NCBI GenBank assembly: GCA_963803805.1
Contig: CAWDOD010000007.1
Location: 174,328 to 238,327, forward strand
Source: an uncultured cyanobacterium
GTDB lineage: Bacteria; Cyanobacteriota; Cyanobacteriia; Cyanobacteriales; CAWCAG01
Direction of reading: 5' to 3'
Length of the DNA stretch: 64,000 bases
Shown here: positions 9,607 to 36,005 of the stretch, in pieces
Layout: each line of letters opens with the position of its first letter
Numbering within the stretch: position 1 is the first letter of the stretch
Translations under genes and position numbers: made by a program
The notes under the pieces: generated by a model
Databases searched by the model: none
Told to the model about the DNA's origin: nothing
The model's input: the letters and a program-made list of their open reading frames with translations, nothing else

Positions 9607-9680
9607 TCATGAGCGGAATTAGCTTGATGGAAACTGTAGAAATACTTACACGATGAAGCAATAACCGCAAACATACACTA

Positions 9681-12616: not shown

Positions 12617-12886
12617 AATTAATTTCTACACACGCCATAAAACAGCTTATACCATAAGATCTGGTGGTCACGCTTTCCCACTTACCGTAACCTACATTAT
12701 TTGCCAGAAATTGAAAAAATGCCTTTTTCGACGTAAATACCTATGCAAAATGCAAGATTAAGTTTTGTGACAATTGCCTAGAAGTTGCGTAAAACATAGC
12801 AATCTCACCAGAGAACCAGATGAAGGTGAGTAATTCACTTGAATAACCTATGAATAACCTAGAAGTTCTTACATATTCTGGCCAGG

Positions 12887-13525
12887 GTGATGAATGAACT
12901 AGATGAGTCCTTGAAAGAGCTAGCTAAAAAAGCGCAGGGTTATCCTGTAGGGAGCAAAGAGCGCAATCGAGTTTTGCATCAGTTATGGAACAAAATACAG
13001 CAAAATTCCCATAAACTTTGCCGTCCTTTCCGAGGGCAGTTTATCAACTATCAACAAATTTATGTTGAAGCAGTGTATAAGTTGCTAGCTTATGTTTGTC
13101 AAAATATAGATCAGTATGATCCTGACAAAGGAGAACTTTTACAATGGGCAGCTAATCATAAACGTATGAAAGGCTTTTTTGAGAAAGCTTATCGGGAGAT
13201 GAAGCCGATTGGAAATGCTAATTTGCCGAGGAAAACTTTACAAGATTTAGCAGAATTAAAAGAATCTAGTAATAAGCCGGGGAAACTAGCTTCTGAGCAA
13301 ATTATTGCTTATGTAGCTGAAGATCCTGATGGAATATTTAAGAGTAAATCTCTAAATGGCAATGAGGAGGCCAACTTTAAGATGATTTTTACTAAATATC
13401 ATCAAGGCTACTCGTTTCAAGAAATTGCCCAACAATTGCAGGAAAAATATTCCACTGTACATAGTTTTTATCACCGCAACTTGAGTTATTTTGCGGAAAC
13501 AATTAAAGCATATTTAAGTAATTAG
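12887..13525 (+). CDS. Divergent sigma-70 (ECF-like) factor
   Basis: Region-2-like segment (IYVEAVYKLLAYVCQNIDQYDPDKG...W) and C-terminal HTH (GYSFQEIAQQL); directly upstream of DUF1822 as is typical in cyanobacteria. Confidence 0.7.
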   Translation: MMNELDESLKELAKKAQGYPVGSKERNRVLHQLWNKIQQNSHKLCRPFRGQFINYQQIYVEAVYKLLAYVCQNIDQYDPDKGELLQWAANHKRMKGFFEKAYREMKPIGNANLPRKTLQDLAELKESSNKPGKLASEQIIAYVAEDPDGIFKSKSLNGNEEANFKMIFTKYHQGYSFQEIAQQLQEKYSTVHSFYHRNLSYFAETIKAYLSN

Positions 13526-13540
13526 TTAGGAGGTTGAAAA

Positions 13541-14491
13541 ATGCTAAGAGAATCGAATTCTTCTGGTGTAATTATATCTTTAGGTGCAAAAGCACATCAG
13601 CTTGCTGAGGCATTTTCTCAGCAACAAGCTCAAAGTCACAAGACAAAACAAGTTTATCTTAATACTTTAGCAGTTTATGCTGTCAATATTTATCTAGAAG
13701 GGATGGGGATTACTACTGATTTGAAGTCTAGCTATAGCTGGAATGCTGTTATGCAAACTATGGCTAACGTAGCAGATTTAGTAATACCGGAACGAGGTAG
13801 ATTGGAATGTCGTTACTTGTTACCTGACCAAGAATCTTGTTATGTTCCCTCAGAGGTTTGGCTAGAGAGAACTGGTTATGTTGTAGTTAAGCTAGACCAA
13901 GATTTAAGTGAGGCGAGGTTATTAGGTTTTACCATTAAAGTAGAAGAAGAATATTTAGCCCTTACAAACTTATTACCATTAGAAGATTTATTAGATAGAC
14001 TAATTGGAAAACAAGAGAAATTGCAGTCATCTCCTATTCAGCTTAGTAACTGGCTTGATAATCTTTTTACTAAAGGCTGGCAATCTTTACAAGAATACTT
14101 ACAGAGTCAAAATTATGAGCCTGGTTTCAATTTTAGAAGCCCTGCTTTAATCACTTCTAAGCCAAAAACAGGAAAAACCAACTTAGCCGAAGGAATCAAA
14201 TTAATCAAATTTGAAAAAGCAGAGCAACAAGTTGCTTTAGTGGTGGGTGCAGACTTAAAAACTCAGTTAGAATCTACTATTTCAGTTAAGGTTTTTCCTT
14301 TGGGTAGCAGTACTTATCTTCCCCAAGATTTACAATTACTAATTTTAAGTGAAACGGGGGAACCAGTAGTACAAACTAAAGCGAAAGCCACCAAACAAAT
14401 TGAAGTAGAGTTTAGTGGAGAAAAGGGAGAACAATTTAGGGTTAAAGTTGTTTTGGATGATTTTAGTATTACTGAAACATTTTCAATTTAA
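13541..14491 (+). CDS. DUF1822 family protein
   Basis: AH.LAEAFSQQQ...KQVYLNTLAVYAV, ADLVIP..GRLECR, P.EVW..RTGYVVV...A.LLGF; C-terminal FSGEKGEQFRVKV. Confidence 0.88.
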   Translation: MLRESNSSGVIISLGAKAHQLAEAFSQQQAQSHKTKQVYLNTLAVYAVNIYLEGMGITTDLKSSYSWNAVMQTMANVADLVIPERGRLECRYLLPDQESCYVPSEVWLERTGYVVVKLDQDLSEARLLGFTIKVEEEYLALTNLLPLEDLLDRLIGKQEKLQSSPIQLSNWLDNLFTKGWQSLQEYLQSQNYEPGFNFRSPALITSKPKTGKTNLAEGIKLIKFEKAEQQVALVVGADLKTQLESTISVKVFPLGSSTYLPQDLQLLILSETGEPVVQTKAKATKQIEVEFSGEKGEQFRVKVVLDDFSITETFSI

Positions 14492-14524
14492 TTCTAGGTT
14501 GCAAGTATTAGGGTAAAGTGCATT

Positions 14525-16871
14525 ATGGGTAGATTAGTAATTTTAAAGTTAGATGGCAATTTGCATTCAATAGGTTTTCGAGTAACCTTAGAAGTAGAAT
14601 CAAGAAGGTCATCGTTTTGGGGACTTACAAGGAAATTTACCTGCTAATCCAGAATTAGTAGAAAAGTTACAGGAGCATTGGTTAGAAAATTATCGTAAAA
14701 TTGGTTCCCCGGCACGTATTAAAGTTAAGAAAGTTACTTATAGTGGTTCTGTTAATAAGTTGGTTGAAGAGTCAGGTAAACAACTTAAAAAAAGTTTGAA
14801 CCAATGGCTTGCTTCACCGGAATTCAGTGAAATCAACAACTATTTACGCACAGTATTAAGCCCCAGTGAAGTAATTCGTTTCTTAATTCGTACTGATGAT
14901 ACAAATGTTTTGAAACTTCCCTGGGAAGAGTGGCAATTCTTTGTAGATTATCCCAAAGCAGAAGTCGGCTACGGGGGAACTAAGTTTAGTAAACCACAAC
15001 AGGTTGTTACAAAAAAAAAGCCAGCTAAGGTTCGTATCTTGGCAATCTTGGGACATAGTGAAGGTATTAACCTCGAAGCAGATGAACGGCTGTTGCGGAG
15101 TTTGCCAGGGGCTGATGAACCTGTATTTTTAGTACAACCGAAACGTAAAGATATTAATGATAGTTTGTGGGAACAACCTTGGGATATTATATTTTTTGCC
15201 GGACATAGTATTACCGAAAATGACGAGGGAAAGATTTATCTTAATGATGAGGAAAGTTTAACCATTGATGAATTGTGGCACGCTTTAAGAAAAGCAGTCA
15301 ACAATGGCTTAAAATTAGCTATATTCAACTCCTGCGACGGTTTAGGCTTAGCTAAACGCCTAGATGACATTAACATTCCGCAAATGATTGTTATGCGGGA
15401 GTTAGTACCAGACAAAGTTGCCCAACAATTTCTTAAATACTTCCTCAGCGCCTTTTCTGGTGGCAAACCCTTTTATTTAGCAGCAAGGGAAGCGAGGGAA
15501 CAGTTGCATTGGTTAGAAGAGGAGTTTCCTTGTGCTACTTGGTTGCCAGTGATTTTTCAAAATGTCGGTGAAGCCGCTTTGACTTGGGAAGAGTTAAAGG
15601 GAGCTAAGAAGCCTAAATCAGCTTTGCAGGATCTTTCTTGGCGACGGGGTTTGCAAATGGTATTGCTAACCAGTTTGGTGGTTACTAGTTGTGTGGTGGG
15701 GTTGCGATCGCAGTCTGTTTTTAAGCCATTGGAGTTGAAAGCGTTTGATCACCTGATGCAGCAAAGGAAAGATCAAGGGTCTGATCCTCGTATTTTAGTT
15801 GTAGAAATAACGGATGCAGATCAAAGGCTTCCGGAACAAAAAGGTAAAAAGCAAGGTTCCTCTATTTCTGACTTTGCACTAGAGAAACTTTTAGACAAGC
15901 TAGAATCATATCAACCACGAGTAATAGGTTTAACGCTATTTCGCGATCCTCCTGACTACGCACCAGAATTACCAGAACTTAAAGAACGTTTTCAAAAAAG
16001 CAAAGTCCTTTACGGAATTTGCAATGTAGATGAATTAGGAGATGGAGAAAGAGGATTTTTGCCTCCTCCAACCTTACCAGAAAAGCGTCTAGGTTTTACT
16101 AATGGTATAGGTGATGACGACAATGTAATCCGCCGCTCTATCCTGTTTATGGATACACCTGCAACGTCAGTTTGCCCAACATCTTTTTCTATTACCCTTA
16201 AGCTAGTAGAAGCATATTTGGAACAAGAAAGTATTCCGCATCCAGTAATTAAGCTGCCGAAACACTCTAACGATAGTTTGTATATAGGCAATGTGCTAAT
16301 TCCTAATTTACGCTACAATCCAGGAATTTATGGAAATAGCGATGATGATAATTGGGGATATAAATCAATTATTAATTATCGGTCTTATCGTTCTGTTTTG
16401 GAAATAGCAGACAAAGTTAGCTTAGAAGATATTTTAAGAGACAAAGTTATCTCGTCAAAAATAAAAAACAAGATAATTTTGATCGGTTCAAATAAGAGCT
16501 TACCTGATAACAAACACCAGACCCCTTATAACCAGAAAATACCTGGTGTAATTCTTCAAGCACAAATGGTTAGTCAGCTTCTCAGTAGGGTTCTTGATGA
16601 CCGACCTCTAATTGTTTTCTGGCCTCCCTGGCTGAATTTTATCTGGATTGCTGCTTGGTCTTTTTTAGGAGGTATTTTAACCTGGTGTTTACGTTCCCAG
16701 TTTAATTTGTTAGTAGCAGTAATTATATCTTTAGCTTCTTTATATGGGGCTTGTTTGTATTTATTAACTCAAGGTTTTTGGATTCCCTTAATTCCTTCAG
16801 TTTTGACTTTATTTGGTACTGCTGCTGTAGTGCTTTCAATCATCAATTTGAAAAAATCTCGTTCAATATGA
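14525..16871 (+). pseudogene. CHAT (caspase-like) + CHASE2 membrane protein with a +1 frameshift near 14602 (real or assembly indel)
   Basis: MGRLVILKLDGNL...LEVES from ATG 14525 joins EGHRFGDLQGNLPANPEL... (frame of ORF 14760) if one A of TCAAGAAGG is removed. CHAT His/Cys motifs FFAGHS and FNSCDG; CHASE2 ELKAFDHLMQ...ILVVEITD; three C-terminal TM helices. Confidence 0.85.
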
Positions 16872-17623
16872 TATTCAACAATTTGTTTGGCAAGTTTTTA
16901 AGCTTTCATTTAGTAGTTACCTTTCTACTAATCAACACAAATATTGTAGAAGCAAGAGTGTTAAAACCTCAATTAACTAAACCTTCCTATGAATTGAATT
17001 GGTGGGAACATTTTCTTCTTACTGAGGATACAGGACAAGGAACATCAAAAGGACATCCTATAAATACAGGTACTCGTACTCCTTGTGATTATAAACGATA
17101 TCTAGAACCTTTAGTACTAATAGAACCACACTCTAAGACAACCGAATGGCGTTGGGGTTTCACTCGCAATGAATACCCGACTTTTTGGGCTTACATTCCT
17201 TATCAAGCAGACATGATCAAGAAGATCACCTTTTCTTTGCGGGATGAACAAGAGAACATCATCTATGAAACAAACCTAAACAAACCAGAAACCACAGGCA
17301 TCATTAGCTTCACTCTGCCTAACACTGCAAAGCTACTTCCTAAAGGAGAATGGTATAAATGGTATTTATTTGTCGAAGCCAGTTGTAAACCTCAACAAAC
17401 TGCTGAAATGTATGAAACTAGTGCTTGGATACAAAGAAGCGATGACCCTCAAATTCCCGAAACTGAGTTTGTTTACGATCGCCTGACAGACATCGCTAAC
17501 CTTGCAGAAAGTCCCCAGAAGCCACAGCAATGGCAAACATTACTTGAATCACTAGGGTTAGACGAATATACTAACGAACCAATTATTGTAGACTGCTGTC
17601 AACCACTAGAGGAACAAGAGTGA
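16868..17623 (+). CDS. DUF928 domain protein
   Basis: ATG overlaps the upstream stop (ATGA); signal-like N-terminus; PTFWAYIPY, FSLRDE, GIISFTLP, WYKWY, W..LLESLGL. Confidence 0.85.
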   Translation: MIFNNLFGKFLSFHLVVTFLLINTNIVEARVLKPQLTKPSYELNWWEHFLLTEDTGQGTSKGHPINTGTRTPCDYKRYLEPLVLIEPHSKTTEWRWGFTRNEYPTFWAYIPYQADMIKKITFSLRDEQENIIYETNLNKPETTGIISFTLPNTAKLLPKGEWYKWYLFVEASCKPQQTAEMYETSAWIQRSDDPQIPETEFVYDRLTDIANLAESPQKPQQWQTLLESLGLDEYTNEPIIVDCCQPLEEQE

Positions 17624-17667
17624 CAAACAGATTGGGTTGTATTGACACCATTTTCATACATCCGCCT

Positions 17668-18366
17668 CTAAAGCGTATCAGGGTCAATGCCTAAGTCTCG
17701 AAGCTTGTCTAGGGCTTTATTCAGTTTAGCTCTAGCTTGCTCTTCTTGTAAACGAGCCTGATCCCGCTCTACTCGCGCCTGATCCCGCTCCAGCAAACTT
17801 ACTTCGGGTTCAGTAAATGTCTCACCATTGGGATAAAATACAGACAATCCATCCTCAAATAGTTCAAACCGAATCTGCAAAAGGGGCGATGTCCAAGGCA
17901 AATACAATGCAGTAACCAAAGTATAAACATCATTATTCTGTTGGCGTACAAAGCCCCAGAAATCCTTACGCTGAATGTCGTAGTAATAGGCTTCTAAAAC
18001 CCCATATTCTTCATAGAATTTCTGTTTTTCTGCCATTTCCCGACGAGTGTTGCTGGGGGAAAGAATCTCAAACACAACTTGGGGGGCAATCTGTTCTTCC
18101 TGCCATTGTTTATAGCTACCTCGATATCCTTGGGAACGACCTAAAACCACCATCACATCTGGCGCTTGGCATGGGGCAGGGGGTTCTTCCACTTCCACAG
18201 GATACCACAGCAAATCTCCTGCAACAAAGGCCACTTCATCTTTTAGTAAATGTTTGAGATTAGTAACTAGACGGACAATCCATTCATACTGTTCTGTGTT
18301 GTCGGCCATAGGTTTACCGTCAGAATCAGGGTATAGTGTTAAAGGAGAACGAGGAGTTTGAACCAT
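17668..18366 (-). CDS. Uma2 (DUF820) family putative endonuclease
   Basis: YPDSDGKPMADNT, APDVMVVLGR, PQVVFEILSPSNT, FYEEYGVLE. ATG at 18366 preferred over the longer ORF start. Confidence 0.9.
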   Translation of the reverse strand: MVQTPRSPLTLYPDSDGKPMADNTEQYEWIVRLVTNLKHLLKDEVAFVAGDLLWYPVEVEEPPAPCQAPDVMVVLGRSQGYRGSYKQWQEEQIAPQVVFEILSPSNTRREMAEKQKFYEEYGVLEAYYYDIQRKDFWGFVRQQNNDVYTLVTALYLPWTSPLLQIRFELFEDGLSVFYPNGETFTEPEVSLLERDQARVERDQARLQEEQARAKLNKALDKLRDLGIDPDTL

Positions 18367-18472
18367 GAGTCCTTGCAGACGACTGTTGATCGAGGGCAGT
18401 TTAGGTAAAGTTAGTTTATTATAACCCAGTGTTTGGTGGGTATGACACCCTTTCAAGAATAATGGTTGATTA

Positions 18473-21139
18473 TTAACGCCAATTGCCTACTAAAATAAAA
18501 GGACTCCAGTAGTAAGGTTTGCGATATTCACCCTCTCTGTTTAATAAACTTAACTGAGCATTTTGTAAAGCTTGTGCTTTCGTCAACCATTCTCCTGCTT
18601 CGGTTTTGCTCCCTAACTCCTGATAAAATTTCCCCATCAACATAGCAGTGGATTGATCGTTAACCGGATATAAAGAGGCAACAGCACTACGCGCCCCTGC
18701 TTGCAGTGCTACACCTGCCATACCTAATGCAGCACGTTTGTCGCCACTGGCCGTTTCACAAGCACTCAAAACTAATAGTTCTATTGCTGTGGTGTTGATT
18801 TCTGTTTGGTTTCTAATTAGGTTATCAAATTGGATTAAATTAATTTCTTCTTGGAAGGCATAAAGATAAGTTTCTTCAGGGCGAGAACTAAAAATGCCGT
18901 GGGTAGCAATATGAACTATAGAAAAGGGTTTTGTTTCTATTTGTTGTTGGAAGGTAGCTTTGGTAAAAGTGTTATTTTTGATAATTTTACTATTTGGTCT
19001 AGATTCCTGAATTTCTATTAGTTCATCCTCAACGTAAGGCAAAGCAGAAGCACCGAGATTTTCTTCGCTAACTCCTGCTGCTAATAGTAAAGTATCTTGG
19101 TCAAGAATTTGTGTATTCTCTGGTATTTGTAAGCCTAAGCTAGAAGCTAAACTATATTTTTCAATTAAATATTTTTCTCCGTCATGAAGAGTAGCTAGAG
19201 GAATACTTCGCAGAGAACCATTTAAGACAAAGGCTAAAGTATCTACTGAATATTTTTGTAATTCTAAGTCGATATCTTGCAAGATCAGTTTATATAATTC
19301 TTGAAAAGATGAGGCATTATTAGCAGATTTTTTTTGTTTAATATCTGTTTGTATTTTCTCAACTAAATTATCTAATTCCTGAGCAGTAATATTAATAGTA
19401 TAAGTTTTTAGTTCTGATTCTTGGGGTAGCTTAACAACAATTTCTAAACGGTTAGCAAAAATAATCGGATAAATAACAGCTACAGGTAAGTTATCTTTGT
19501 CAACAATTTCTTGAATAGAAACGCGATCGCCATTTTGCAGTTGACAGCGTAGATAGTCTTCTAATTCCGCTAGCTGCAACTTTTCCATGACAGCAACTGC
19601 TTTTTGCAAATAAGTTTGTCTCTGATCTAAATCTTTGTTGCTGCTTTTTGCTTTTTCTGGTTGTTTAGCAGTTTGTAACAATAAGTCAGCTAATTCTCGA
19701 TAAACTGGTTCAACATCATCACGAAAGTTAAATTTGAGGTCAGTATTATTGAGAGACAATAAATCTTTCCTGACTTTATCTACTTCATTAATGGCATTTT
19801 CATAGGCTGCGATCGCACTCTCTTCTTCTCCCTTTTGACGAATAATTCTGCCTAGCTGCCACTGGGTTTGATAACTAAGATCAGCACCATAAACTTCCTG
19901 TTTGGCTTGTTGAGTTTCAATTAGTTTGAACGCCTGTTCGGTTAATTGTTGTGCTTCAGCTAATTGTCCGTTACTAGCATATAATTGACCTAAATATTTG
20001 AGAGCAAAAGCTTCAGAACGAGTATCTCTTAAACTGCGGGCAGATGTAACAGCATTGGTTAATAAATTAAGGGTATTTGAGTTGAATTGTTTAGCATTGG
20101 ATAGTTGCATCAAACTATTAGCTAAGTTAAGCTGAGAATAGAGGCGATCGCGCCCAATATGCAAGTTATTAATCCCCGCAATAAGTTCAGGTAATTCAGT
20201 AAGTAGTTGTCGCAATTGCTGCTCAACTTCTTGGCCAAGTTGAGTATCTTCCTTTGCTAGTTGTAGTAACCACGGCTGGGCTTCAATGAGTAAGTTAAGA
20301 TGGTTCAATTTTGCTTTGTAACTGAGGGCTAAACTAGGAGAATCGGCACTTTGTTGATAATAAATTAAAGCTTGCCCTAATTTTTCCTTAGCTTTTGTTA
20401 AATCATTAGGTATACCAAGGCGTTGATAATTATCTTGCCAGTGGGAGTAAGCTGCCCTGGCAGTATTGCCTAAACTGAGGAGAGATTCATGATAACCGGG
20501 GGAAAAGTCAGCAGAGATAACTAAACTAGCTTGCAGTAACTCTTCTACTTGTTGCAGATAATCCTTCTCTTCATCTCCTGGTAACAGAGGATTTTTTACC
20601 TTACCTGTAACTAACAAAAGATTCGCCATCAGCCGCAAACTTGTTGCCTTAATTTCTGAATCTTCTTGCTGCTGCCAGTACCTAAAAGCAGGAATCAGAG
20701 TATTAATTGCTTCACGATGCAACCCTAATTCTTGGAGTGCGATCGCTTGATAAACTTGACTACGATGTAAACCGGAATTATCCTTCCCTTGGGCATATTG
20801 TTCTGCTGCTAGTTGCCAACTGTATAAAGCGGCTTCAGCTTTCCCTATACCAAACTGTATTTTACCTTGAAGTTCTAACGCTTGGGCTAGCAATTGCCAT
20901 TTTCGAGGAGAATCAAACTGTTGTAGTTGCGCTAAAGTATTTGCGATCGCTTCCTGGGCTAGTTGCCATTGTCCCTGTTGTTGATAAACTTGGGCTTGGG
21001 CAAGTTGTTTTTCAATTTCTTCTGTAGGTAATGCTTCAGCAACTGTAGTTCCTGTATTTGCAGGCTGAAGGGGAAAAGCTACTACAGGACAACAGATAAT
21101 TATTAAGGCGAGGGACAAAGGTAGATGTAGTTTGACCAT
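18473..21139 (-). CDS. Exported TPR + CHAT domain protein (caspase-like peptidase)
   Basis: Signal-like N-terminus; TPR-like helices; FRDDVEPVYREL; CHAT motifs VHIATHG and VLSACETASG; PYYWSPFILVGNW. Confidence 0.92.
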   Translation of the reverse strand: MVKLHLPLSLALIIICCPVVAFPLQPANTGTTVAEALPTEEIEKQLAQAQVYQQQGQWQLAQEAIANTLAQLQQFDSPRKWQLLAQALELQGKIQFGIGKAEAALYSWQLAAEQYAQGKDNSGLHRSQVYQAIALQELGLHREAINTLIPAFRYWQQQEDSEIKATSLRLMANLLLVTGKVKNPLLPGDEEKDYLQQVEELLQASLVISADFSPGYHESLLSLGNTARAAYSHWQDNYQRLGIPNDLTKAKEKLGQALIYYQQSADSPSLALSYKAKLNHLNLLIEAQPWLLQLAKEDTQLGQEVEQQLRQLLTELPELIAGINNLHIGRDRLYSQLNLANSLMQLSNAKQFNSNTLNLLTNAVTSARSLRDTRSEAFALKYLGQLYASNGQLAEAQQLTEQAFKLIETQQAKQEVYGADLSYQTQWQLGRIIRQKGEEESAIAAYENAINEVDKVRKDLLSLNNTDLKFNFRDDVEPVYRELADLLLQTAKQPEKAKSSNKDLDQRQTYLQKAVAVMEKLQLAELEDYLRCQLQNGDRVSIQEIVDKDNLPVAVIYPIIFANRLEIVVKLPQESELKTYTINITAQELDNLVEKIQTDIKQKKSANNASSFQELYKLILQDIDLELQKYSVDTLAFVLNGSLRSIPLATLHDGEKYLIEKYSLASSLGLQIPENTQILDQDTLLLAAGVSEENLGASALPYVEDELIEIQESRPNSKIIKNNTFTKATFQQQIETKPFSIVHIATHGIFSSRPEETYLYAFQEEINLIQFDNLIRNQTEINTTAIELLVLSACETASGDKRAALGMAGVALQAGARSAVASLYPVNDQSTAMLMGKFYQELGSKTEAGEWLTKAQALQNAQLSLLNREGEYRKPYYWSPFILVGNWR

Positions 21140-21304
21140 TGTGATTTGTTCAACTAGTACTCTACCCTCTTCTCTTGTTGTAGTGAGAGATTTTATGCGA
21201 AAGAGAAGAATTGTTTACAAAAGTTGACCAAACAACAGACTTTTACCAGTGGAAGCCTGTACAATGCTCCTTGATATATTTTTAAGTGTATCTACTAGAT
21301 AAAT

Positions 21305-23032
21305 ATGAAATCTTGCCTCGTAGCTAAGTATTTCCTCTCCTATTCGTTTTGTTTGCTATTAACTGGATGGTTTACCACTACCCTTAGTCTTGCCCAAAAC
21401 CCACCACCACCAGAAATAGAACCTCCTTCTACCCGTCCTCAACCTTTGGAATCACCACAAAAGCTGCCTCCACCGGAAGACTTGTTACCTCCTTTACCTA
21501 CTCCTACCCCACCAGACAATCCATCTCTCCCGACAGTTGAAACCTTTGAAGTTAAGGAAATTCAAGTAGAGGGTAGCACATTATTCACCGAAGCAGAGTT
21601 AAAGGAAATCATCGCCCCCTTCCTCAACAAATCCCTATCTCTGCCTGAACTTCAGCAGGTAGCATTAGCTGTAGAGAAATATTACCTTGAGCAAGGATAT
21701 CTTACTTCGGGGGCTTATGTTTCCCGGTTCGACATTGGGGAAGGCATCTTAACTATTCAAGTAGTAGAAGGGGGCATAGAAAAGATTAGAATCACTGGTA
21801 CAAAAAGACTCAATCCTAGCTATATTCGTAGTCGTCTTGCGATCGCTACCACAACTCCCCTCAACAAAGAAAGACTCTTAGAAGCTTTGCAACTCTTGCG
21901 TAGTGATCCTTTGATTGATAGGATCAGGGCTGATTTATTGGATAGTTCCCGCCTCGGACAAAGTATTCTGGAAATTAAAATAACCGAAGCTGATAGTTTT
22001 CGCACCGACTTTAGTTACAATAACCAGCGTTCCCCTAGTGTAGGGACTAATCGTTTAGGTTTGAGTTTCAATGAAGGGAATTTACTAGGATTAGGAGATT
22101 CCCTACGCCTAGGCTACTACCACAGCGAAGGCAGCGACAGTTTAGATTTTGGTTATGAATTACCTATTAATCCCCGTAATGGCAGCATTAGCTTTGCCCA
22201 TGGTACAACCTCAAGTCAGGTAATCGAAGACCCCTTTGCCATCCTAAATATCGAATCAGACTCCCGCTACTACGAAATCAGCCTACAACAACCAGTTAAA
22301 CGCACACCCAGAGAAGAAATGACCCTTGGCTTAACAGCTTCACGCCAGGAAAGTGAAAGTTCTCTTTTAGGTATTGCCATCCCTCTTGCTGTAGGGGCTG
22401 ATGCCCAGGGGCGTGTCCGTGTCTCCACTTTGCGGTTTTTCCAAGAATGGGTAAAGCGTGGAGACAGGGAAGTAATAGCTTTGCGATCGCAGTTTAACTT
22501 AGGAGTAGGGGCAATGTCTGCCACAATCAACGAAGCTGAACCCGATAGTTTATTCTTCTCCTGGCGTTTGCAAGGACAGTGGCTGCGCCTACTTGCACCG
22601 GATACCTTGTTAGTAGTCAGGGGAAATGTACAACTTGCAGACCAAGCTTTACTTAGTTTAGAACAGTTCGGAATAGGTGGGCAAAACACCGTCAGGGGTT
22701 ATCGCCAAGATTTCTTACTTGCTGACAATGCTGCCACCGTTTCTGGGGAATTACGTTGGCCCATTTTACGGGTATCTGATTGGGATAGCGTTTTACAGTT
22801 AACCCCTTTCTTTGACTTTGCCACAGTTTGGAATAATTCTAGGAATCAGGGACAACGTAGGGAATTAAATAATCATAACTTAGCTTCTGTTGGTTTAGGT
22901 TTACGTTGGCAACAGGGGGATAATTTAGCCTTAAGTTTGGCTTGGGGTATTCCTCTGATTAGTGTCGATAGTTCAGAGAATACCTGGCAGGAACAAGGCT
23001 GGCATTTTTCGGTTATTTACAGTCCTTTTTGA
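21305..23032 (+). CDS. ShlB/FhaC/HecB family two-partner secretion outer-membrane protein (TpsB)
   Basis: POTRA-like segments (Y...GY.TSGA; VVEG.IE.I), VRGYRQD motif, C-terminal aromatic F. Confidence 0.93.
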   Translation: MKSCLVAKYFLSYSFCLLLTGWFTTTLSLAQNPPPPEIEPPSTRPQPLESPQKLPPPEDLLPPLPTPTPPDNPSLPTVETFEVKEIQVEGSTLFTEAELKEIIAPFLNKSLSLPELQQVALAVEKYYLEQGYLTSGAYVSRFDIGEGILTIQVVEGGIEKIRITGTKRLNPSYIRSRLAIATTTPLNKERLLEALQLLRSDPLIDRIRADLLDSSRLGQSILEIKITEADSFRTDFSYNNQRSPSVGTNRLGLSFNEGNLLGLGDSLRLGYYHSEGSDSLDFGYELPINPRNGSISFAHGTTSSQVIEDPFAILNIESDSRYYEISLQQPVKRTPREEMTLGLTASRQESESSLLGIAIPLAVGADAQGRVRVSTLRFFQEWVKRGDREVIALRSQFNLGVGAMSATINEAEPDSLFFSWRLQGQWLRLLAPDTLLVVRGNVQLADQALLSLEQFGIGGQNTVRGYRQDFLLADNAATVSGELRWPILRVSDWDSVLQLTPFFDFATVWNNSRNQGQRRELNNHNLASVGLGLRWQQGDNLALSLAWGIPLISVDSSENTWQEQGWHFSVIYSPF

Positions 23033-23064
23033 GAGAATTTGACTGTTTTGAGTGCGATGGCGAA

Positions 23065-23232
23065 ACCCGCCACGGATTAAAATCCATGTCTAGCAGCCTA
23101 AGTCATCTTTAAGATGACTTCCAAACGCTGTAGTCTTCCCCAAGAAAAACTGTAACAAAACTCCTAAAAATTAATCTCCTAGTCATCTTGAGATGACTTA
23201 AGTTGTTAGCCCCGAATTAATTCGCGGGCGGT
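23065..23232. repeat. Palindromic MITE/REP-like element, copy 1
   Basis: Two AGTCATCT..AGATGACT palindromes at 23101 and 23181 plus a GGATT..AATCC hairpin; homologous to 38927-39057. Confidence 0.7.
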
Positions 23233-23341
23233 ATATGAACAAATATTAAGATATCAGTTTCTCTGCATAAAAGTTGCCGCGTTTTCTAGAGAAGAAACTA
23301 GAAACCCATATTTTAATTTACATGAAAGGGAAGCTTCTACT

Positions 23342-24687
23342 ATGAGATTTAAGCACATTGCTTCTTATCTTAGCTACAGCGTGCTAACACTTGGTATTTG
23401 TTCTCTACCAATTCAAACTGCCCAAGCAGGAACTATTCATAACAATTGGAACTATGTTATAGATTCGCCCAGCGACGGTACAGAAAGAACAGGGTTTGGA
23501 TTTAACCCTACTCCTTATCGAGTTGGGGGTTCAGATAACCCCTTTGAAATGTATGGTATGTCCTTGTTGGATTTAGGCGATCGCGTCACAGTTGCCATAA
23601 CAGGTAATATGCCTTTAGGAGGGGTTGATGATCCTTGGGGATATGTCAATGACGGTAATACAGCCTGGGGAGATTTATTTTTCAACTTTACCGGAGAAGA
23701 TATTCCTACTGCTAACACACGGGAGAACCTATTTGCTGTTCGCTTTGCAGCTAATAACGAAGCCGGAGTTAGCGAACTCGGAGTTTACAAAGATATAACT
23801 CTCAAAAATGTTGCTTCAATCAACGATGGCTGGCCTACTGTTGATAGATATATCAATGCTGTTGAGGCAAAAGGCAGTGATCCTTCAATGGGAGATATAG
23901 ATATAAGAAGTGGCTATTTCGGTGAAGAAAGTTACAACGTAATTGACTCTGGTACAAAAGTAGGTGATGTTGAACTCCTTGACTTGCCAGCTTTAACTGC
24001 ATTAGGGTTAGACTTTGAAAATTTTGATGCTGCTGGTTCAGAAACCTTTGGTTTTAGTTTCGCTAAACCAGAAGGCTTTATCGGCAGTTTCATCAGCCAC
24101 ATCGTCACAGAATGTTTCAATGATGGAGTTGCCCTCAAAGGTGCTTTAACCCTTGGAGGCCCTGTTCTTCCTGGCCCAACTCCTGAACCTTGCGTAGTCA
24201 CAGACGGACAAAAAAATCCTCTGCTACCCAGCTTTATTGATGATGAAGGGTGGGCTGTATTTGAAAATGTAGAAAGTGGTCTGTGGTATGACCCTGTTGC
24301 AGAAATGGGTTTTGAGTTTCAGGCACTAGGGGAAACCCGATTTACTGTGATAGAAGACTTCCCTTGTGGTATTTCCGAAGATGATACCTTTGATGTTTAT
24401 GTAGGTTCCAAACCCTATAGGGATCTTGGCCTGATAAAAGCTTAGTTTTTGACTTCCCAGTTAAAGAATTTAAGATTACTTTTCCCCTTGAAGGTGATTA
24501 CGGGCGGGAGACTTTCCCTGTGAAACTTGACTTTGCCACTGCAACAGGAACTTTTAGAATGCGTCAAATCCCACCACCACCGACTCCTCCTGAACCAGAA
24601 AAAATACCTGAACCTGATTCTGTAATGGCAATTCTAGCTTTAAGCCTTTCCGGACTCATTTGGCGATTGAGTCGCAAGAAAGTTTAG
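23342..24687 (+). pseudogene. PEP-CTERM surface protein (N-domain XDD3-like) with a -1 frameshift at about 24430 (real or assembly indel)
   Basis: Signal peptide; adding one C at GGCC (24428-24431) extends the ORF to ...PPEPEKIPEPDSVMAILALSLSGLIWRLSRKKV*, a PEP-CTERM sorting signal ending at 24687. Confidence 0.8.
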
Positions 24688-24767
24688 GATTTTAGGTTTG
24701 TTGCATTTTAATTAGCGGAGGGAGATAGCTTGTAAGTTGGCTATCTCCCTATTAATTGTGTTTTCTA

Positions 24768-27700
24768 TCAATCGTTTCTCAACAAACAACTAGCAAAAGC
24801 CTGAGAAGTCAGTATAATTTCACCATCCGGTAATTCAAACCAACCTTGCACTTCTTGAATCGATTGATCTGAATGAGATTGCTGTGTATCACTTAATGAT
24901 GTAACCGATGTATTCAGACTATCAATACTACTACTCAATGGATCAGAAGGGTTAGAAGGTAAACCAGCCCTGCCGATGTCGATAAAGACAGAATTTTTCT
25001 CTCCATTACTTCCTACAGCACAACCTTCAGGTAAACCTTCATCTAAAAAACGATCATCTAAGGGATTAAGGCGCAGATTGTCATTAACATTGATCTCAAC
25101 AGTACCATCAATTCCTAACTCAGAACTAGCAGTAAAATCGCTTTCAGAGGTGTTAACCTTTTCAAAGAGTCTAAAACCAAAAATCCCTTTTGCTGTAGCA
25201 GTAATATTACCACCTTGACCTTGTAAAGAACTGGCAATAATATCACTATCTTCTGCAAGAATCGCAACAATAAAGTCACCAACTCTCAGGGTCATATTAC
25301 CACCGCTACCTGTACCATTCGCATTGGTCAAAATATCGCTATCCTGGCGCAGAATCACTGATTTATCTACAAAAAGTTGAATGTTACCGCCATTAGCATT
25401 AATTGTTTCTGTTGTCAGCCTTGCACCGTTGGTCATATTAACAGATTCTGCATTGACTAGTATGTCCCCTGCATTACCTGAGTTGTTACCACTAAGATTA
25501 ACTTGCCCACCATTTTCTATGTTTAACAGCTTTGTATTAATTTCAATACCTTGGGCATTACCAGAACCAGAAGAAGCAAAGACAAGACGACTAGCTTGAC
25601 CACTATTGGCTACACCACTTACTTTCACTAAGTCTGAAGCATTAACAACTAAAGTTCCGCCTTGACCATCGCTAACAGTGGATGCGGATACTTCCCCTCC
25701 ATCTTCAACCAGTAATTGACTGGTGTTAATGACAAAATTACCTGCATTGCCACCACCAAAAGTATCTGATGATAAACCACTTCTAACCTGACCATTAGGG
25801 GTAGTACCTACAACTTTTACAAACTCTGAAGCATTAATAACAACATTTCCAGCTTGTCCTTGTCCTGATGTCGAGGCAAAAATCCTTGCACCTTCTTGAA
25901 GGGTTAATTGCTTAGTATTAACTGTTAAATTTCCGGCATTTCCTGTACTTGTTGCCCCTAAAAATATGCCGCTAAAGTTAGCATTGTTAACTGGATTAAA
26001 ATCGTTACCGATCAAAGTAGCTGACTCGCTGGCATTAACAGTTATTGTCCCCCCTGTTCCTGTACCTTGACTAAAAGCAGAAACGAAAGAACCATTTTCT
26101 AGTTGCAAAGTCTTAGCTTGCATATCAATAACTCCTGCATTGCCATCACCGTTAGTGTTGACGAAAATAAAGCCTCTGTTTAAAGATATACCTTGTTCTG
26201 CGGTTAGAGTAATTTGTCCTGAATCTCCGTTACTGCCTAGGCTATTCATGTCAGCAATGTCACTATTAGCATAAATACCAGAAGTGTTTTCAATATTAAT
26301 TTCTTGAGCATCAACACTGATATTTCCTGCTGTTGCTGTACCGATTATTGCCGTTGTACCAGCAGTCCTTGCAGATAATTCTGCACCATTTTGCAAGGTA
26401 AAACTGCCACCACTACTAAGATTAATATCACCTCCTTTCAGAGTAGATGTGTCTGTATAACTCTCATTAAAAATTCCTTGAGATAATACCAAAGGCGCGT
26501 CGCTGTGGACTCGGACATTGCCTCCCAGTAATCCTCTAGCAAGAATCTCTGCATTAGTAGTAAGTGTTCCTGTTCCTAAGATAGTTACATCGCCACCATT
26601 ACCACCGTAAGTATTAAGTGGTAAACCTCCTCCTATATTTTGATCAAGGGCAGAAGCATTTATACCACCTTGCAAAGTTGTATCTCCCCGTGAATCAATC
26701 TGTATAGAACCCCCTCCCTGTACTTCTCTAGTATCTATAACTCCATTAACTGCAATTCCTCCCGGTAAGCTATTAGGAAAGAATTGATTTGTTAAAACGA
26801 CTCTACCTCCGTCACTACCAGCAAACCCAAAAGCAGTAACAATTTCTCCCGTGGTAATATTGGCATTTGCTAGAGGTGTAGAAAATCTAGGCGGTGGGTT
26901 AGCAGTAAAGAAAGAATTACCATCAATTACACTGTTGTCAGGAGTAGGAATCCCCCCTAAAGCGTTCCAATCAATGCCTGCCCGTATGTCTAAGGTTGGT
27001 CTAGCATTACCATTAATCGTCGGGACTGCTGTACCATCTGATAAATTAAAGTTTGCTAAATCACTATAGGTTGTAGTTGCGTTAATATTGTTTGTATTTC
27101 CAGGGTTAATAGAGTTATTTCCTGTTTCTAAATTATCAATTAATACATCGCCTAAAGCGACGCTACCTCCAGCTAGAATATGCAAAGAAGCACCCTGATA
27201 ATCCCCTAAAATCACATCCCCAGAAGTAATAATTATTGGATCATCAGGACTAAATAAATCTCCTAAACTCCCATCTAATTTCTCCACACGAAAATTCCCC
27301 CCACTCCAATAATGGGCATCACCACCCACTGCATTACCAGAACGCAAAGTTAAATCTCCCCCAGCAAACAAACCACTATCAGGATGATTCAGGGCAAAAA
27401 TATCCACTTTCTCATCACCCTGGACCAACAACTCTCCTCCCGCAGCAGCTACAAAAGGGTTAGTAACACTATCCCTAATCTTCACTTCGTTTGTCGCCAC
27501 TAAGTTAACATCACCGCCACCTTGTACTTCACCAGTTAAATCTAAATTCCGTCCTACCAAGGTTAAATCTTGCCCCACAAGTAACTTACCTCGGTTAACA
27601 ATTTCCGCACGGGGAACATTGTTTCCATACTGCAAACCAGGACGTATATTAACTGTTAAAAGAGGAGGTGCATCGGGATTAGTAGCACTAAATTCTCTCC

Positions 27701-28136
27701 CATTTTCTAGCAACAAACTATCAGCAGTGCTAACGAAAAAAGACCCAGCAATATCTAAACGGGCATTTTCGCCAAAGAAGACACCGTTAGGATTAATTAA
27801 GAATAAATTTGCCGTACCGTCAACCCCTAAAGTACCTAATATTTCTGAGGGATTGTTACCAGTTACGCGGGTTAATATATTGTTGATTGCTGCTGGATTT
27901 TCAAAGTAAACCCGTTGCAATTCCCCGACATTAAACTGACTGAAACTGTGAAAAAGATTAGTACCACGAATAGCGCCGCCAGTGATTAATTCTCCTGGTA
28001 GGCCCTTGATTTGGGTATTGTTGATGATTTGGGAGTTTTCTTGTCCCAAGGTTGCATCAGGGGTGATTTGGGCTTGCAGAGGAGAAGCAGAGAAGAGGGT
28101 TGTAGTGAGTAGTAATAAGGTGGTTAGTTTGGACAT
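24768..28136 (-). CDS. Filamentous haemagglutinin N-terminal domain protein (TpsA-like)
   Basis: AQITPDATL, NLFHSFSQFNV, NILTRVTG, ANLFLINPNG; Gly/Asn-rich beta-helix repeats; C-terminal ITASSELG-like and GRAGLP motifs. Confidence 0.93.
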   Translation of the reverse strand: MSKLTTLLLLTTTLFSASPLQAQITPDATLGQENSQIINNTQIKGLPGELITGGAIRGTNLFHSFSQFNVGELQRVYFENPAAINNILTRVTGNNPSEILGTLGVDGTANLFLINPNGVFFGENARLDIAGSFFVSTADSLLLENGREFSATNPDAPPLLTVNIRPGLQYGNNVPRAEIVNRGKLLVGQDLTLVGRNLDLTGEVQGGGDVNLVATNEVKIRDSVTNPFVAAAGGELLVQGDEKVDIFALNHPDSGLFAGGDLTLRSGNAVGGDAHYWSGGNFRVEKLDGSLGDLFSPDDPIIITSGDVILGDYQGASLHILAGGSVALGDVLIDNLETGNNSINPGNTNNINATTTYSDLANFNLSDGTAVPTINGNARPTLDIRAGIDWNALGGIPTPDNSVIDGNSFFTANPPPRFSTPLANANITTGEIVTAFGFAGSDGGRVVLTNQFFPNSLPGGIAVNGVIDTREVQGGGSIQIDSRGDTTLQGGINASALDQNIGGGLPLNTYGGNGGDVTILGTGTLTTNAEILARGLLGGNVRVHSDAPLVLSQGIFNESYTDTSTLKGGDINLSSGGSFTLQNGAELSARTAGTTAIIGTATAGNISVDAQEINIENTSGIYANSDIADMNSLGSNGDSGQITLTAEQGISLNRGFIFVNTNGDGNAGVIDMQAKTLQLENGSFVSAFSQGTGTGGTITVNASESATLIGNDFNPVNNANFSGIFLGATSTGNAGNLTVNTKQLTLQEGARIFASTSGQGQAGNVVINASEFVKVVGTTPNGQVRSGLSSDTFGGGNAGNFVINTSQLLVEDGGEVSASTVSDGQGGTLVVNASDLVKVSGVANSGQASRLVFASSGSGNAQGIEINTKLLNIENGGQVNLSGNNSGNAGDILVNAESVNMTNGARLTTETINANGGNIQLFVDKSVILRQDSDILTNANGTGSGGNMTLRVGDFIVAILAEDSDIIASSLQGQGGNITATAKGIFGFRLFEKVNTSESDFTASSELGIDGTVEINVNDNLRLNPLDDRFLDEGLPEGCAVGSNGEKNSVFIDIGRAGLPSNPSDPLSSSIDSLNTSVTSLSDTQQSHSDQSIQEVQGWFELPDGEIILTSQAFASCLLRND

Positions 28137-29296: not shown

Positions 29297-32200
29297 TTAA
29301 ACTCCAGGAACACGGATATAGCGATCAGGATTACTCGCTGTGTAATCAACAATTCGGTGTAGTGTACCTGCCCCACCACCATCAAAATTAGTGTTGTAGT
29401 GTGATTCTGAAAGAACAACTCGTTTGACTCCATTTTGGTAGTAAGTTTTCTCAACTACAGCTACATGATTTTGACCATTCCTTGTCCATTGTGCAATATC
29501 ACCTGGTTGAGGATCGCTAACGATATACGCTCCATTGGATAGCTGATAGTGCCATTGGTTTGCATTGCCTGACATTGAGTTTAAAGCGGCAGGATTACCT
29601 CCTAATTCTTTCACGCGCCCGTGCGCGTACCAAGTACAATTACCTTCAGTTCTACTGTATCCATCAACTAAATTTGAGCCATAACTTGCCTGGGAAAAAA
29701 TATTTCCTGTTGTGTAAAACTGAGGACGAGCTTTGAAATAGTTTACTCCTTGCTGAGTAAGTAGAGGTGTTTTAACAGTACCTCCGCCTCCACCTCCACT
29801 ATCTCCGCTACCTTCACTTATATAATAAGCAGCAACATAACCCACCTGACCATTAGCTTCAATCTCATACCAATCAGTCCGATTACCTGGATAATAAGCA
29901 CCACCAGAAACTTGCTTGCGAATTGTCACCGCAGTTCCTTTAGGTAACTTGCCAATAATAGTAGAACCACTAACAGAAGGTTTGTTGCGGAAATTGAGAG
30001 AAACATTACCTACATTAGCATTAACATGACCTTTCTTCGTAGTATTGCCAGGATCGGAACTGCCACCGGGTTGAATAGGAGGCTTAGAATTGGGATAGCC
30101 GAAAATGTAAGCACTGGGAACCCAATAAGCTTTACCATCACGCCAGTAACGATACCAGAGAGCATCAGGCTTATCAGTCCAAATATCATTAACAGACTCC
30201 CCGTAAGTCCAGCCATCGAAATGCAAAGTCTTTTTGTAAGGTTCAGCTAAACCACTGCGGTCTTCATGCTTAGGGCTATTACGCAAAGCTACGCCAATAC
30301 TAGGCCCTACCCAACCGGAGAAATTCTCCGCACGAAAATCAGTTGGTTGAGAAACAATATCGACATAGTAGGCAGCGACAAAACCTTGCTGCCCATCTAC
30401 CTCGACTTTGTACCACTCATCACTTAAACCATTCTCGTAACTTTTTCCTTTGACAGACTCCAAAACCTTCAAAGTTTTTCCTTTAGGAAGCTGGCCAATC
30501 AGATTATCTCCTCTTACTTCAGGAGAAGTTCGGAAATTGAGAGGGTCATTTCCTACTTTAGAATTAACCACACCAGATTTAGGTGGTGCAGGCTGAGGTT
30601 GAGGCTTGGGACTAGGGGGAGGGTTGGAACCAGTTGCGCTACCTGTGAAGAATTTCTCAATGCCACGGGCAATAGCATGACCCGCTTTTTCTACATTGCC
30701 ACGGCTCATCCCTGGTGCATCAATAAACAAAGATTCTGTGAGAACGGCAGGAACCCCTAAAGGAGCATTGCGTAATACAGATAAATCTTTTGTTTTTACT
30801 CCCCGATTAGGAATCTCGTTATCAGGAAAGACAGCATCTAGTTCACTGTTGACAGCTTTAGCTAGTTCAGAATCAGCACTGGGTGCATTGGGATGAGAAT
30901 AAACTTCGTGGCCTTGGGCATCCTTGTTAAAGGCATTGAGATGCAAAGAAACAAACAGATCGTATCCAGCAGCCCGTTGACCAATCTGTGCTAAGGATAT
31001 AGCTTCATCAAGGATTTTTACCTCTGCACCGAGTTGGCGTAGGTGTTCAGCAACAATTTTTGCTTGGTGTAAGTTTTCTGTTGCTTCATTTGTACCATTA
31101 CCACCAGCACCAGGATCGAACCCTGTATCAGTAATACCATGGCCTGGATCGAGGATAATCTTTTTACCAGCGAGGGTATTAGTATTTGGAACTGGAAAGT
31201 TTTGGAAAACAGCACGTTCCCAAGGAGTAGTTGGTTCTTTCCCGATAGGAGGAGTTTGCTGCAATTTGGGGTTGTATACTTCTGGGTCAACGGTTCTTGC
31301 CAAACTAACTGCCGCAGCAATGTTTAGCAATCCTGCCCCTGTTTCTAAATCTTCTCCTAACTCGTTTATATCTGCTGCTGTAGATTTGAGGATGTCAATT
31401 ACTTGGCGATAATTCAAATTAGGGTTCGCAGCCCAAACTTGAGAGGCAGCCCCCGTTACCTTCGCGGTAGCAACAGAAGTACCAGCCATTGTCCCTACAC
31501 CATTACCAACAGTAGATACGACTGGAGTTTCTAAGTTGCCACCATTAGCAACAATGTCCAACCCTTCGCCATGATTTGAATATTCAGCCCGATCAAAGCC
31601 TTGCCAAACAGAAGTTTCACCACTAATTTGTTCTGCTGAACCTACGGTAATAACGTTATCAAAATGCTGAGAAGCTTGTCCCAAAGCTGACATAACTTCA
31701 CCCTCATTTCCTGCGGCAACGGCAACGAGAACATTGTTTTGACGGGCATATTCTAAAGCTGCCATTTCTGAGGGGGTAAACTCATAACGGGTGGTTTCTA
31801 CACCATCAATATCAATTTGAGTTAAATCAAAGCTTAGATTTGCGATTCCATTAGGTTGCCCCGACTCCCTAGCTGCATCTACAAACTCCATTAAAGATTC
31901 CGCCCATTCACCTGAACCAACAGCCCTTCCTAACCAAAGGGGTGCATCATCATTGATACCATCAATCCCAATATCATTATCATTCTGGGCTGCGACAATA
32001 CCTAAAACATGAGTACCATGTTCATTGCCTTCTCCTGGGGTTAGCAAAGGGTTAGCATCGTTGGCAATCTTATCTGTTCCTAAACTAATTTTTTCATAGT
32101 CTAAGTCAGGATTATCACCACTAAATCCAGTATCAATAAAGCCAATCAGAGGTTGGTCTTCAACAGGGAAATTATAATCGGTAACAGGAGGATCTACTTG

Positions 32201-33097: not shown

Positions 33098-33344
33098 TTT
33101 AATTATCTGGTAAGAAAAATCAAATTTGCTGTCTTACCTTCTTCTCAGGGTGATAAACCACTATTTATGCACTGAGATACATTTCTTTACAATCAGAGCC
33201 TTTAACCCATAACTTCAGTAAAAGTATAGTTTTGTAACAAAATCGGTAATTGTGCATAAAAGACTAGGGGTCAGACCTGAGAACAAATAGAAGGCTCAAC
33301 TAATTCCATAACTAACCATCTGTTTTCTCTTGCCATAACCAACC

Positions 33345-35973: not shown

Positions 35974-35982
35974 AAACAGGTA

Positions 35983-36003
35983 TTACCTATTACCCATTAC
36001 CTA
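35983..36003. repeat. STRR-type heptamer array (TTACCTA x3, one variant)
   Basis: TTACCTA TTACCCA TTACCTA immediately before the HlyD start codon. Confidence 0.7.
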
Positions 36004-36005
36004 TC

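Follow-up and report, generated by a model that had tools for sequence, protein, structure and literature searches.

Here we report the analysis of a gene cassette encoding a sigma-like protein, a DUF1822 protein and a membrane receptor-protease with CHAT and CHASE2 domains, located in a 64,000-nt stretch of DNA from an uncultured cyanobacterium (GenBank assembly GCA_963803805.1, contig CAWDOD010000007.1), hereafter the window. The gene inventory was obtained from a listing of open reading frames (ORFs) combined with Pfam and NCBIfam scans of the window, and protein topology was assigned by hydropathy scan. The core of the locus lies on the plus strand and includes genes for a 212-aa sigma-like protein (12887-13525; Sigma70_r4_2 at 19 bits, below the Pfam cutoff), a 316-aa DUF1822 protein (13541-14491; PF08852, E 4e-65), a frameshifted receptor-protease with EACC2, CHAT and CHASE2 regions, one transmembrane (TM) helix between CHAT and CHASE2 and three after CHASE2 (14525-16871, longest ORF 14760-16871), and a 251-aa exported DUF928 protein read from the ATG at 16868 (16868-17623, in an ORF open from 16751; PF06051, 99 bits). 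Downstream lie a Uma2 (restriction-endonuclease-like) gene (17668-18456, minus strand), an exported TPR-CHAT protease of 888 aa (18473-21139, minus strand; CHAT at 177 bits, with TPR), a TpsB outer-membrane transporter (21305-23032, plus strand; POTRA_2 (PF08479), ShlB (PF03865) and Omp85 (PF01103)), an XDD3 surface-protein gene (23342-24445, plus strand) and a 1122-aa TpsA exoprotein (24768-28136, minus strand; two-partner secretion (TPS) domain PF05860 at 165 bits, and TIGR01901). N-terminal signal-type segments were detected on the DUF928, TPR-CHAT, TpsB, TpsA and XDD3 proteins. An earlier reading of this DNA, hereafter the original prediction, had proposed that these genes form a protease-based signaling system. 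Every domain that it named was recovered by the Pfam/NCBIfam scans where it had placed it, and all genes of its run are present in the span, but Uma2 and XDD3 are interspersed among them and the TPR-CHAT and TpsA genes are on the strand opposite to the core.

The window sigma-like protein scores below the cutoffs of both Pfam and NCBIfam, and its relatives of ~400 aa at other loci exceed the Pfam region-4 cutoff. With a family profile built from 29 short relatives, the top matches among PDB sequences were extracytoplasmic function (ECF) sigma factors (R. sphaeroides RpoE, 2q1z, and M. tuberculosis SigK, 4nqw), aligned in regions 2 and 4 with E values of 0.025-0.05, suggesting a very divergent ECF-like protein. 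The ATG of the DUF1822 gene is 15 nt past the sigma stop codon and is preceded, 8 nt upstream, by a GGAGG ribosome-binding site. The length classes of the two proteins also co-vary (218/327 aa versus 400/383 aa, p = 2e-6), and these sequence features support a tight, translationally linked and co-diversifying sigma-DUF1822 pair.

The third gene of the core encodes a receptor in which the EACC2 and CHAT regions are predicted to be cytoplasmic, followed by one TM helix (297-315), the CHASE2 loop and three further TM helices. Its CHAT domain (PF12770) scores 44-57 bits and its CHASE2 domain 178 bits. Ahead of CHAT, an N-terminal region of ~100-170 aa is conserved in all paralogs and in the ortholog at locus L001; no public EACC2 model exists, and this conserved stretch is taken here as the putative EACC2 region. 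Comparison of the CHAT-CHASE2 profile with PDB sequences gave nothing useful. As originally claimed, both CHAT domains of the locus retain their His and Cys motifs: the dyad H149/C192 of the receptor is invariant among three CHAT-CHASE2 paralogs, and H747 and C794 of the TPR-CHAT protein are invariant across 45 homologs. The claimed envelope topology is likewise consistent with the hydropathy scan, which places CHAT in the cytoplasm, CHASE2 in the periplasm, and DUF928 and TPR-CHAT among the exported proteins.

The window copy of the receptor gene carries a frameshift. Its real start is the ATG at ~14525, but this frame runs into a stop codon and the coding sequence continues in the +1 frame. 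The break is explained by one extra A at ~14598 (AGAATC in the window versus AG-ATC in the L001 ortholog, which is 87% identical), so that the longest ORF starts only at the TTG at 14760. The L001 ortholog is intact, with 781 aa in a single frame. Programmed frameshifting at 14598 was considered and rejected, since the site lacks a slippery sequence and the L001 gene stays in one frame. Without the extra A, the window gene would likewise encode 781 aa. The insertion is either a real mutation, which would make the gene a pseudogene or leave it expressed only from an internal start, or an assembly error, and the window copy of the sensor-protease may be inactive unless the insertion is a sequencing error.

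The ATG of the DUF928 gene (16868) overlaps the stop codon of the CHASE2 gene as ATGA, and the two genes are predicted to be translationally coupled. At 60 of 65 loci, a DUF928 gene is found no more than 3 kb downstream of CHASE2. In the genome from which the window derives (hereafter its own genome), six of the ten DUF928 genes are less than 800 bp from a CHASE2 gene, and two of these CHASE2 genes lack CHAT, which argues that DUF928 partners CHASE2 itself and not the caspase module; we propose that DUF928 is a co-sensor of CHASE2. An AlphaFold2 (AF2) model of DUF928 combines a beta-sandwich and two helices with a signal peptide and an N-terminal stretch that is disordered. Most DUF928 homologs carry the motif FxPPxPPxxGxPxGRxRGGAxRGxCP in the disordered stretch; the window protein is divergent there and has no GRRGG motif. 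The DUF928 profile found nothing useful among PDB sequences, and Foldseek on the AF2 model returned only generic immunoglobulin (Ig)-like beta-sandwiches with E > 1e-3, which allow no functional inference.

To assess how often these genes occur together, we relied on a scan with three CHAT-CHASE2 paralogs, which returned 581 relatives. The 80 best loci among these relatives, all of them cyanobacterial and from many genera, were annotated with hidden Markov models built from the paralogs. Enrichment was counted in the 43 loci flanked by at least 8 kb on each side, and the background was the rate in random 22-kb windows of the own genome (5.3 Mb). DUF1822 was found at all 43 loci and the sigma gene at 36/43. 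TPR-CHAT was present at 29/43 loci (background 0.14, p = 4e-15) and the TPS domain of TpsA at 15/43 (background 0.09, p = 3e-6). TpsB was rejected as a linked part of the system (2/43, background 0.04, p = 0.5), though it is present in both the window and the ortholog, and so were Uma2 (8/43, background 0.12, p = 0.14) and XDD3 (2/43, background 0.015, p = 0.13). Thus, TPR-CHAT and TpsA belong with the cassette, whereas TpsB, Uma2 and XDD3 generally fall outside it. We confirmed that the clustering exceeds chance. The original prediction that these families recur as a set in cyanobacteria, and co-occur with TPS genes, held in these neighborhood statistics for DUF1822, TPR-CHAT and TPS-domain genes but not for TpsB. 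Neither TPR-CHAT nor TpsA lies within 10 kb in 11 of the 43 fully flanked cassettes.

Three or more paralogous clusters were found in the own genome. On contig C3, a stretch of 20 kb contains sigma, DUF1822, CHAT-CHASE2, two DUF928, TPR-CHAT, TpsB and TpsA genes, and on contig C9 an uninterrupted same-strand run comprises sigma-like, DUF1822, TpsA, TPR-CHAT, CHAT-CHASE2 and DUF928 genes. The order TpsA followed by TPR-CHAT on one strand recurs across loci. Two more sigma/DUF1822/EACC2-CHAT loci without CHASE2 were also identified, each beside a fusion protein of the TPS::CHAT type. The own genome encodes eight such fusions, which join an N-terminal TPS domain to a CHAT domain at the C-terminus ending in HPYYWSAFTMIGNPW (for example, at C11:734123-739015, C9:38336-41701 and C2:906301-911454), and two of the eight adjoin the loci lacking CHASE2.

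The secreted proteins of the window have the features of type Vb two-partner secretion, that is, a signal peptide and a TPS domain in TpsA, and POTRA domains with an Omp85/ShlB barrel in TpsB. The TpsA proteins adjacent to cassettes share a C-terminal module of the form Cys ... F.ITGRGGLPxxP ... EAQGW ... Cys, with the two cysteines 75-115 residues apart; in the window protein this module reads C1039...GRAGLPSNP...QGW...C1117. A paralogous TpsA on contig C3 (C3:287347-292946) is spread over two separate ORFs, of 1569 aa and 205 aa, the shorter of which has the two-Cys module, and may be a second broken gene of this assembly. The TPR-CHAT protein has an N-terminal hydrophobic signal segment, and its comparison with PDB sequences gave nothing useful. 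The Uma2 gene follows it on the same strand, 16 nt downstream, and this position is kept in the ortholog.

We then searched for regulatory signals. The motif TTTTGTAAC-N16-GCRTAAAA, of the ECF promoter type, was identified ahead of the sigma operon. Sigma genes from the subgroup of the window share upstream the pattern (AATGTAAA)GTTTTGTAAC-N16-(TT)GC(A/G)TAAAA, also written as TTTTGT(A/G)AC-N16-GC(G/A)TAAAA. An AAC-type -35 and a CGT/CAT-type -10 element spaced by about 16 nt, before a sigma gene closely followed by DUF1822, fit the layout of an autoregulated ECF operon. For the shared pattern, we take its form to resemble that of the B. subtilis ECF promoters of the sigma-W / sigma-X type. 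The window site, AGTTTTGTGAC-N16-GCGTAAAA (12761-12796, plus strand), lies 91 nt upstream of the sigma gene, scores 30.8 with a position weight matrix (PWM) and is conserved in L001. This PWM was built from seven sigma-upstream sites and used to scan the whole own genome, where it gave 8 matches of at least 23 bits compared with 0.2 in shuffled genomes, in which no match reached 29. Each of the six matches outside the training set is correctly oriented toward an ORF that begins 50-302 nt further downstream. One of them is ACTTTTGTAAAC-N-GCATAAAATC (21189-21224, minus strand), with a PWM score of 29.9 and located 50 nt upstream of TPR-CHAT; in L001/G001 its -35 and -10 elements are conserved and the spacer has diverged. 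Another match (33228-33263, plus strand; PWM score 23.2) fits a stricter form of the pattern and precedes by 82 nt an export operon of GT4, M50 and HlyD genes, assigned by their Pfam domains (33345-34538 / 34540-35973 / 35832-37568, plus strand). Other non-training matches lie divergently from two sigma paralogs and before a giant RTX-like protein that adjoins a TPS::CHAT gene. A further match (25 bits, C10:160990-161025) precedes a protein judged from its sequence to be cation/proton antiporter-like, and the gene of a short, 746-aa TpsA bearing the two-Cys tail lies 5 kb from this motif.

On reading the intergenic region 33090-33360, we also found a promoter core on the minus strand, TTGTAAAG-N-GCATAAA (33164-33192), 67 nt upstream of a gene for a 1266-aa peptidoglycan hydrolase (29297-33097, minus strand; DUF4114, S8, Amidase_3, SH3 and CHAP domains). 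Since the two promoter cores share this divergent intergenic region, the hydrolase and the GT4/M50/HlyD operon may be co-regulated with the cassette. The core pattern has 29 occurrences in the genome, five of them in the 64-kb window compared with 0.35 expected (p = 3e-5), and the strict pattern has six matches in the genome, all of them upstream of genes. Orthologous sites, including those of the hydrolase and the GT4 operon, are present in the same-genus genome G001, where the -35 and -10 elements are kept and the spacers have diverged, and a reversed-pattern control gave 0 matches; in this genus, the hydrolase with its exporter is a candidate member of the sigma regulon. In more distant relatives, the motif precedes three TpsA genes in Brasilonema sp. 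CT11 and three in Tolypothrix carrinoi. With the promoter upstream of TPR-CHAT in the window and of TpsA genes in relatives, the secretion arm appears to be at least an output of the sigma factor.

Additional observations in the window include a fifth match to the core pattern, TGTAACAGGGCTGCCATGTTGTCATAAA (46260-46287, minus strand), with no ORF of at least 100 aa within 350 nt downstream, and two adjacent genes for leucine-rich-repeat proteins (345 and 462 aa, 8569-11069) just upstream of the locus, with an opposite-strand aminotransferase gene between this pair and the locus. A plain k-mer enrichment upstream of long-type sigma genes gave a signal that came mostly from close Nostoc relatives and was set aside, and a search for promoter words shared between the other sigma paralogs of the own genome and nearby TPS::CHAT genes produced nothing convincing.

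Of 21 related genomes, 20 encode a DUF1822 protein, frequently more than once. The AF2 model of the window protein (mean confidence, pLDDT, of 83) consists of an N-terminal alpha+beta domain (10-155), helices at 168-189, a disordered linker (192-212) that is gap-rich in the alignment, and a C-terminal beta-sandwich. The start of the linker carries a conserved F198-R199-S200 (R in 43/46 sequences) and its end K/R217-R218-x-K220, and we infer that these conserved flanking basic residues are candidate protease sites. Kaur et al. 2021 (PMC8195603) term DUF1822 a TPR protein; the AF2 model shows no TPR fold, and this assignment was rejected in favor of the alpha+beta domain and beta-sandwich. The DUF1822 profile had no match among PDB sequences, and Foldseek on the model returned only generic Ig-like beta-sandwiches with E > 1e-3, from which no function can be inferred.

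In two other genomes (G018 and G020), the C-terminal half of DUF1822 closes proteins of ~650 aa that combine a GerE/sigma-4-like helix-turn-helix (HTH) with an NB-ARC STAND NTPase (L081:1062-3029, L082:413-2362 and L083:894-2834). STAND proteins usually bear sensor repeats at the position taken here by the DUF1822 module. These fusions argue that the beta-sandwich module is mobile, and they tie DUF1822 once more to a sigma-4-type HTH.

The core of this system is already published: in the available text of Kaur, Iyer, Burroughs and Aravind (eLife 2021, PMC8195603), a purely computational study, EACC2-caspase genes are described together with CHASE2, an ECF sigma factor and DUF1822, and a protease-triggered sigma output is proposed. 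The present locus resembles those systems in its caspase-like domain, preceded by a conserved N-terminal region that may correspond to EACC2 and joined to a variable C-terminal sensor, for which CHASE2 and TM helices are named, in its neighboring ECF-like sigma and DUF1822 genes, and in the proposed route from protease to sigma factor. The sigma and DUF1822 genes lie directly upstream of CHAT-CHASE2 in the window, in keeping with the neighborhoods described for EACC2-caspase systems. It differs from the systems as described in that text by DUF928, the exported TPR-CHAT, the TpsA arm, the promoter and the regulon, which go unmentioned there, by the frameshift in the window copy, and by a DUF1822 modeled as an alpha+beta domain with a beta-sandwich instead of TPR. 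In our literature search, EACC2 appeared only in Kaur et al. 2021, no paper paired CHASE2 with a CHAT domain, and no experimental study of any cassette component was found. What is new here, added to the known core, is the promoter motif, the candidate regulon and DUF928 as a proposed CHASE2 co-sensor.

Characterized systems offer partial parallels. In the type III-E CRISPR Craspase, the TPR-CHAT protease Csx29 acts on the sigma-binding protein Csx30 in a system with RpoE (PMC9825189); there too, a sensor-switched CHAT protease cuts a protein that binds an ECF-type sigma encoded at the same locus. The Craspase sensor, however, is the RNA-guided Cas7-11 complex instead of a membrane CHASE2, and the window locus contains no CRISPR genes. 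The PDB profile search with DUF1822 gave no match to Csx30, and Csx30 was not in the top 50 Foldseek matches. The RseA/DegS/RseP and FecA/FecR/FecI systems, as well as PUMA3 with its PdtAB TPS pair, share the passage from an extracytoplasmic cue through proteolysis to the release of an autoregulated ECF sigma, and PUMA3/PdtAB is a precedent for ECF control of a TPS system (PMC5422565). In contrast to RseA/DegS/RseP and Fec, the protease here is part of the sensor protein itself, as a caspase-like domain in the cytoplasm, and the locus has no single-pass anti-sigma with an anti-sigma domain (ASD), no pair of site-1 and site-2 proteases and no TonB-dependent transducer. Finally, LapD/LapG/CdrA of Pseudomonas aeruginosa also combines a periplasmic cysteine protease with a TpsA that keeps its C-terminal tail on the periplasmic side, but its protease is LapG/C93 instead of CHAT and its c-di-GMP receptor has no counterpart here, where cleavage would be by analogy.

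Taken together, we consider the locus to be a member of the EACC2-caspase / ECF-sigma / DUF1822 cassettes, with a sigma-gated secreted regulon and a CHAT protease that would act on DUF1822, a reading to which we assign a probability of roughly 55%. CHASE2 and DUF928 would read a periplasmic cue and activate the cytoplasmic CHAT protease, which would then act on DUF1822, probably by cutting the disordered linker flanked by the FRS and KR residues, or on itself. The sigma factor, once freed, would amplify its own operon and turn on the secreted arm, namely the TpsA fiber, the periplasmic TPR-CHAT, and the lytic enzyme with its exporter. TPR-CHAT would most likely process the C-terminal TpsA tail with its two conserved cysteines, with a possible feedback on DUF928/CHASE2. 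The analogy to Csx29/Csx30/RpoE and the basic residues at the linker make it plausible that CHAT would cleave DUF1822, and TPR-CHAT could reasonably have a second, LapG/CdrA-like function on the TpsA tail.

Several points weigh against this reading. The match of the window sigma to ECF factors is weak (E 0.025-0.05), DUF1822 has neither the fold of an anti-sigma domain nor an informative structural match in the PDB profile search or in Foldseek, and the sensor gene of the window is frameshifted in its N-terminal domain. The promoter was matched to the sigma factor by position and form, and since several paralogous sigma factors share similar motifs, the pairing of sigma to target is ambiguous. 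We defined the strict pattern, together with the hydrolase site that came with it, only once the first matches had been seen, and searches with the core and strict patterns found no motif upstream of TpsA or TpsB in the window. The enrichment background was drawn from one genome, and loci of related genomes are not phylogenetically independent. The contacts between the proteins and their cleavage are predicted. Overall, the original prediction is partly supported: its view of DUF1822 as a putative anti-sigma factor finds no counterpart in the modeled fold, and its placement of the secretion arm at the signal input is not borne out by the promoter evidence, which puts TPR-CHAT (in the window) and TpsA (in relatives) downstream of the sigma factor.

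That input direction, in which a surface TpsA and periplasmic TPR-CHAT and DUF928 relay an outside signal to CHASE2, CHAT cleaves DUF1822 and the sigma factor is released, is the most probable alternative, and we regard it as unlikely. In its favor, the three exported proteins TPR-CHAT, TpsA and DUF928 are encoded in clusters with CHASE2, and Arg-Gly-Gly-type motifs that could suit one protease occur in flexible parts of both DUF928 (GRxRGGAxRGxC) and the TpsA tail (TGRGGLP). Membership in the regulon is also compatible with sensing, as in FecA-type receptors, which are both output and sensor. However, the only directional evidence that we found is that of the promoters, 11 of the 43 fully flanked cassettes contain no TPR-CHAT and no TpsA within 10 kb, the window DUF928 has no GRRGG motif, and TpsB is unlinked (2/43).

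Less likely again is an inside-out control as in LapD/LapG/CdrA, with the sigma factor merely setting expression levels. This alternative draws on the C-terminal module with two spaced cysteines common to cassette-adjacent TpsA proteins, on the recurrent TpsA-TPR-CHAT order, on the eight TPS::CHAT fusions, and on the precedent of LapG, which cuts the periplasmic tail of the TpsA protein CdrA (PMC5422565). It is opposed by the Pfam scan, which revealed no GGDEF, EAL or other c-di-GMP domain and no LapD-like module in the locus, and by TPR-CHAT not being a homolog of LapG (C93), and it leaves the cytoplasmic caspase domain and DUF1822 unexplained.

The least probable reading is a system for conflict or programmed lysis as understood by Kaur et al., in which the caspase would switch on death or immunity, and the sigma factor would launch a suicidal or antagonistic lytic program, with the hydrolase and exoproteins, on invader or danger signals. 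Kaur et al. class EACC2-caspase systems among conflict systems, sigma-type promoters precede the subtilase+amidase+CHAP hydrolase and a GT4 protein matching the Pfam family 'GT4-conflict', and STAND NTPases occur fused to the C-terminal half of DUF1822, but no core protein (sigma, DUF1822, CHAT-CHASE2 or DUF928) has a match in PADLOC, where TPR-CHAT gave only a weak CHAT-type match (BovA, 24.5 bits), CHASE2 senses the extracytoplasmic side and not intracellular invaders, the cassette has no toxin or nuclease effector, and the hydrolase link is confirmed in this genus only.

An extension of the sigma-gated cassette itself can also be imagined, as a two-protease relay with positive feedback in which the sigma factor induces TPR-CHAT, TPR-CHAT cuts Arg-Gly-Gly-type motifs in the TpsA tail and the DUF928 N-terminus, and the product cues CHASE2 and thereby keeps the caspase active on DUF1822. 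We consider such a relay improbable, ranking it between the inside-out and the conflict scenarios. If true, it would constitute a bistable switch that commits a filament cell to fibers and a cell-wall hydrolase, that is, to controlled lysis or antagonism.

The cassette is common in cyanobacteria, as judged from the presence of DUF1822 in nearly all related genomes examined (20/21) and from the 581 relatives of CHAT-CHASE2. With the promoter motif, the candidate regulon, the candidate cleavage linker of DUF1822 and DUF928 as a proposed co-sensor, a domain-level prediction made in 2021 becomes a circuit open to experimental testing. If confirmed, a membrane receptor-caspase that controls a sigma factor would be a bacterial parallel to caspase signaling, and would represent a third route of protease-gated sigma release, beside regulated intramembrane proteolysis and the CRISPR-linked Craspase/CalpL.

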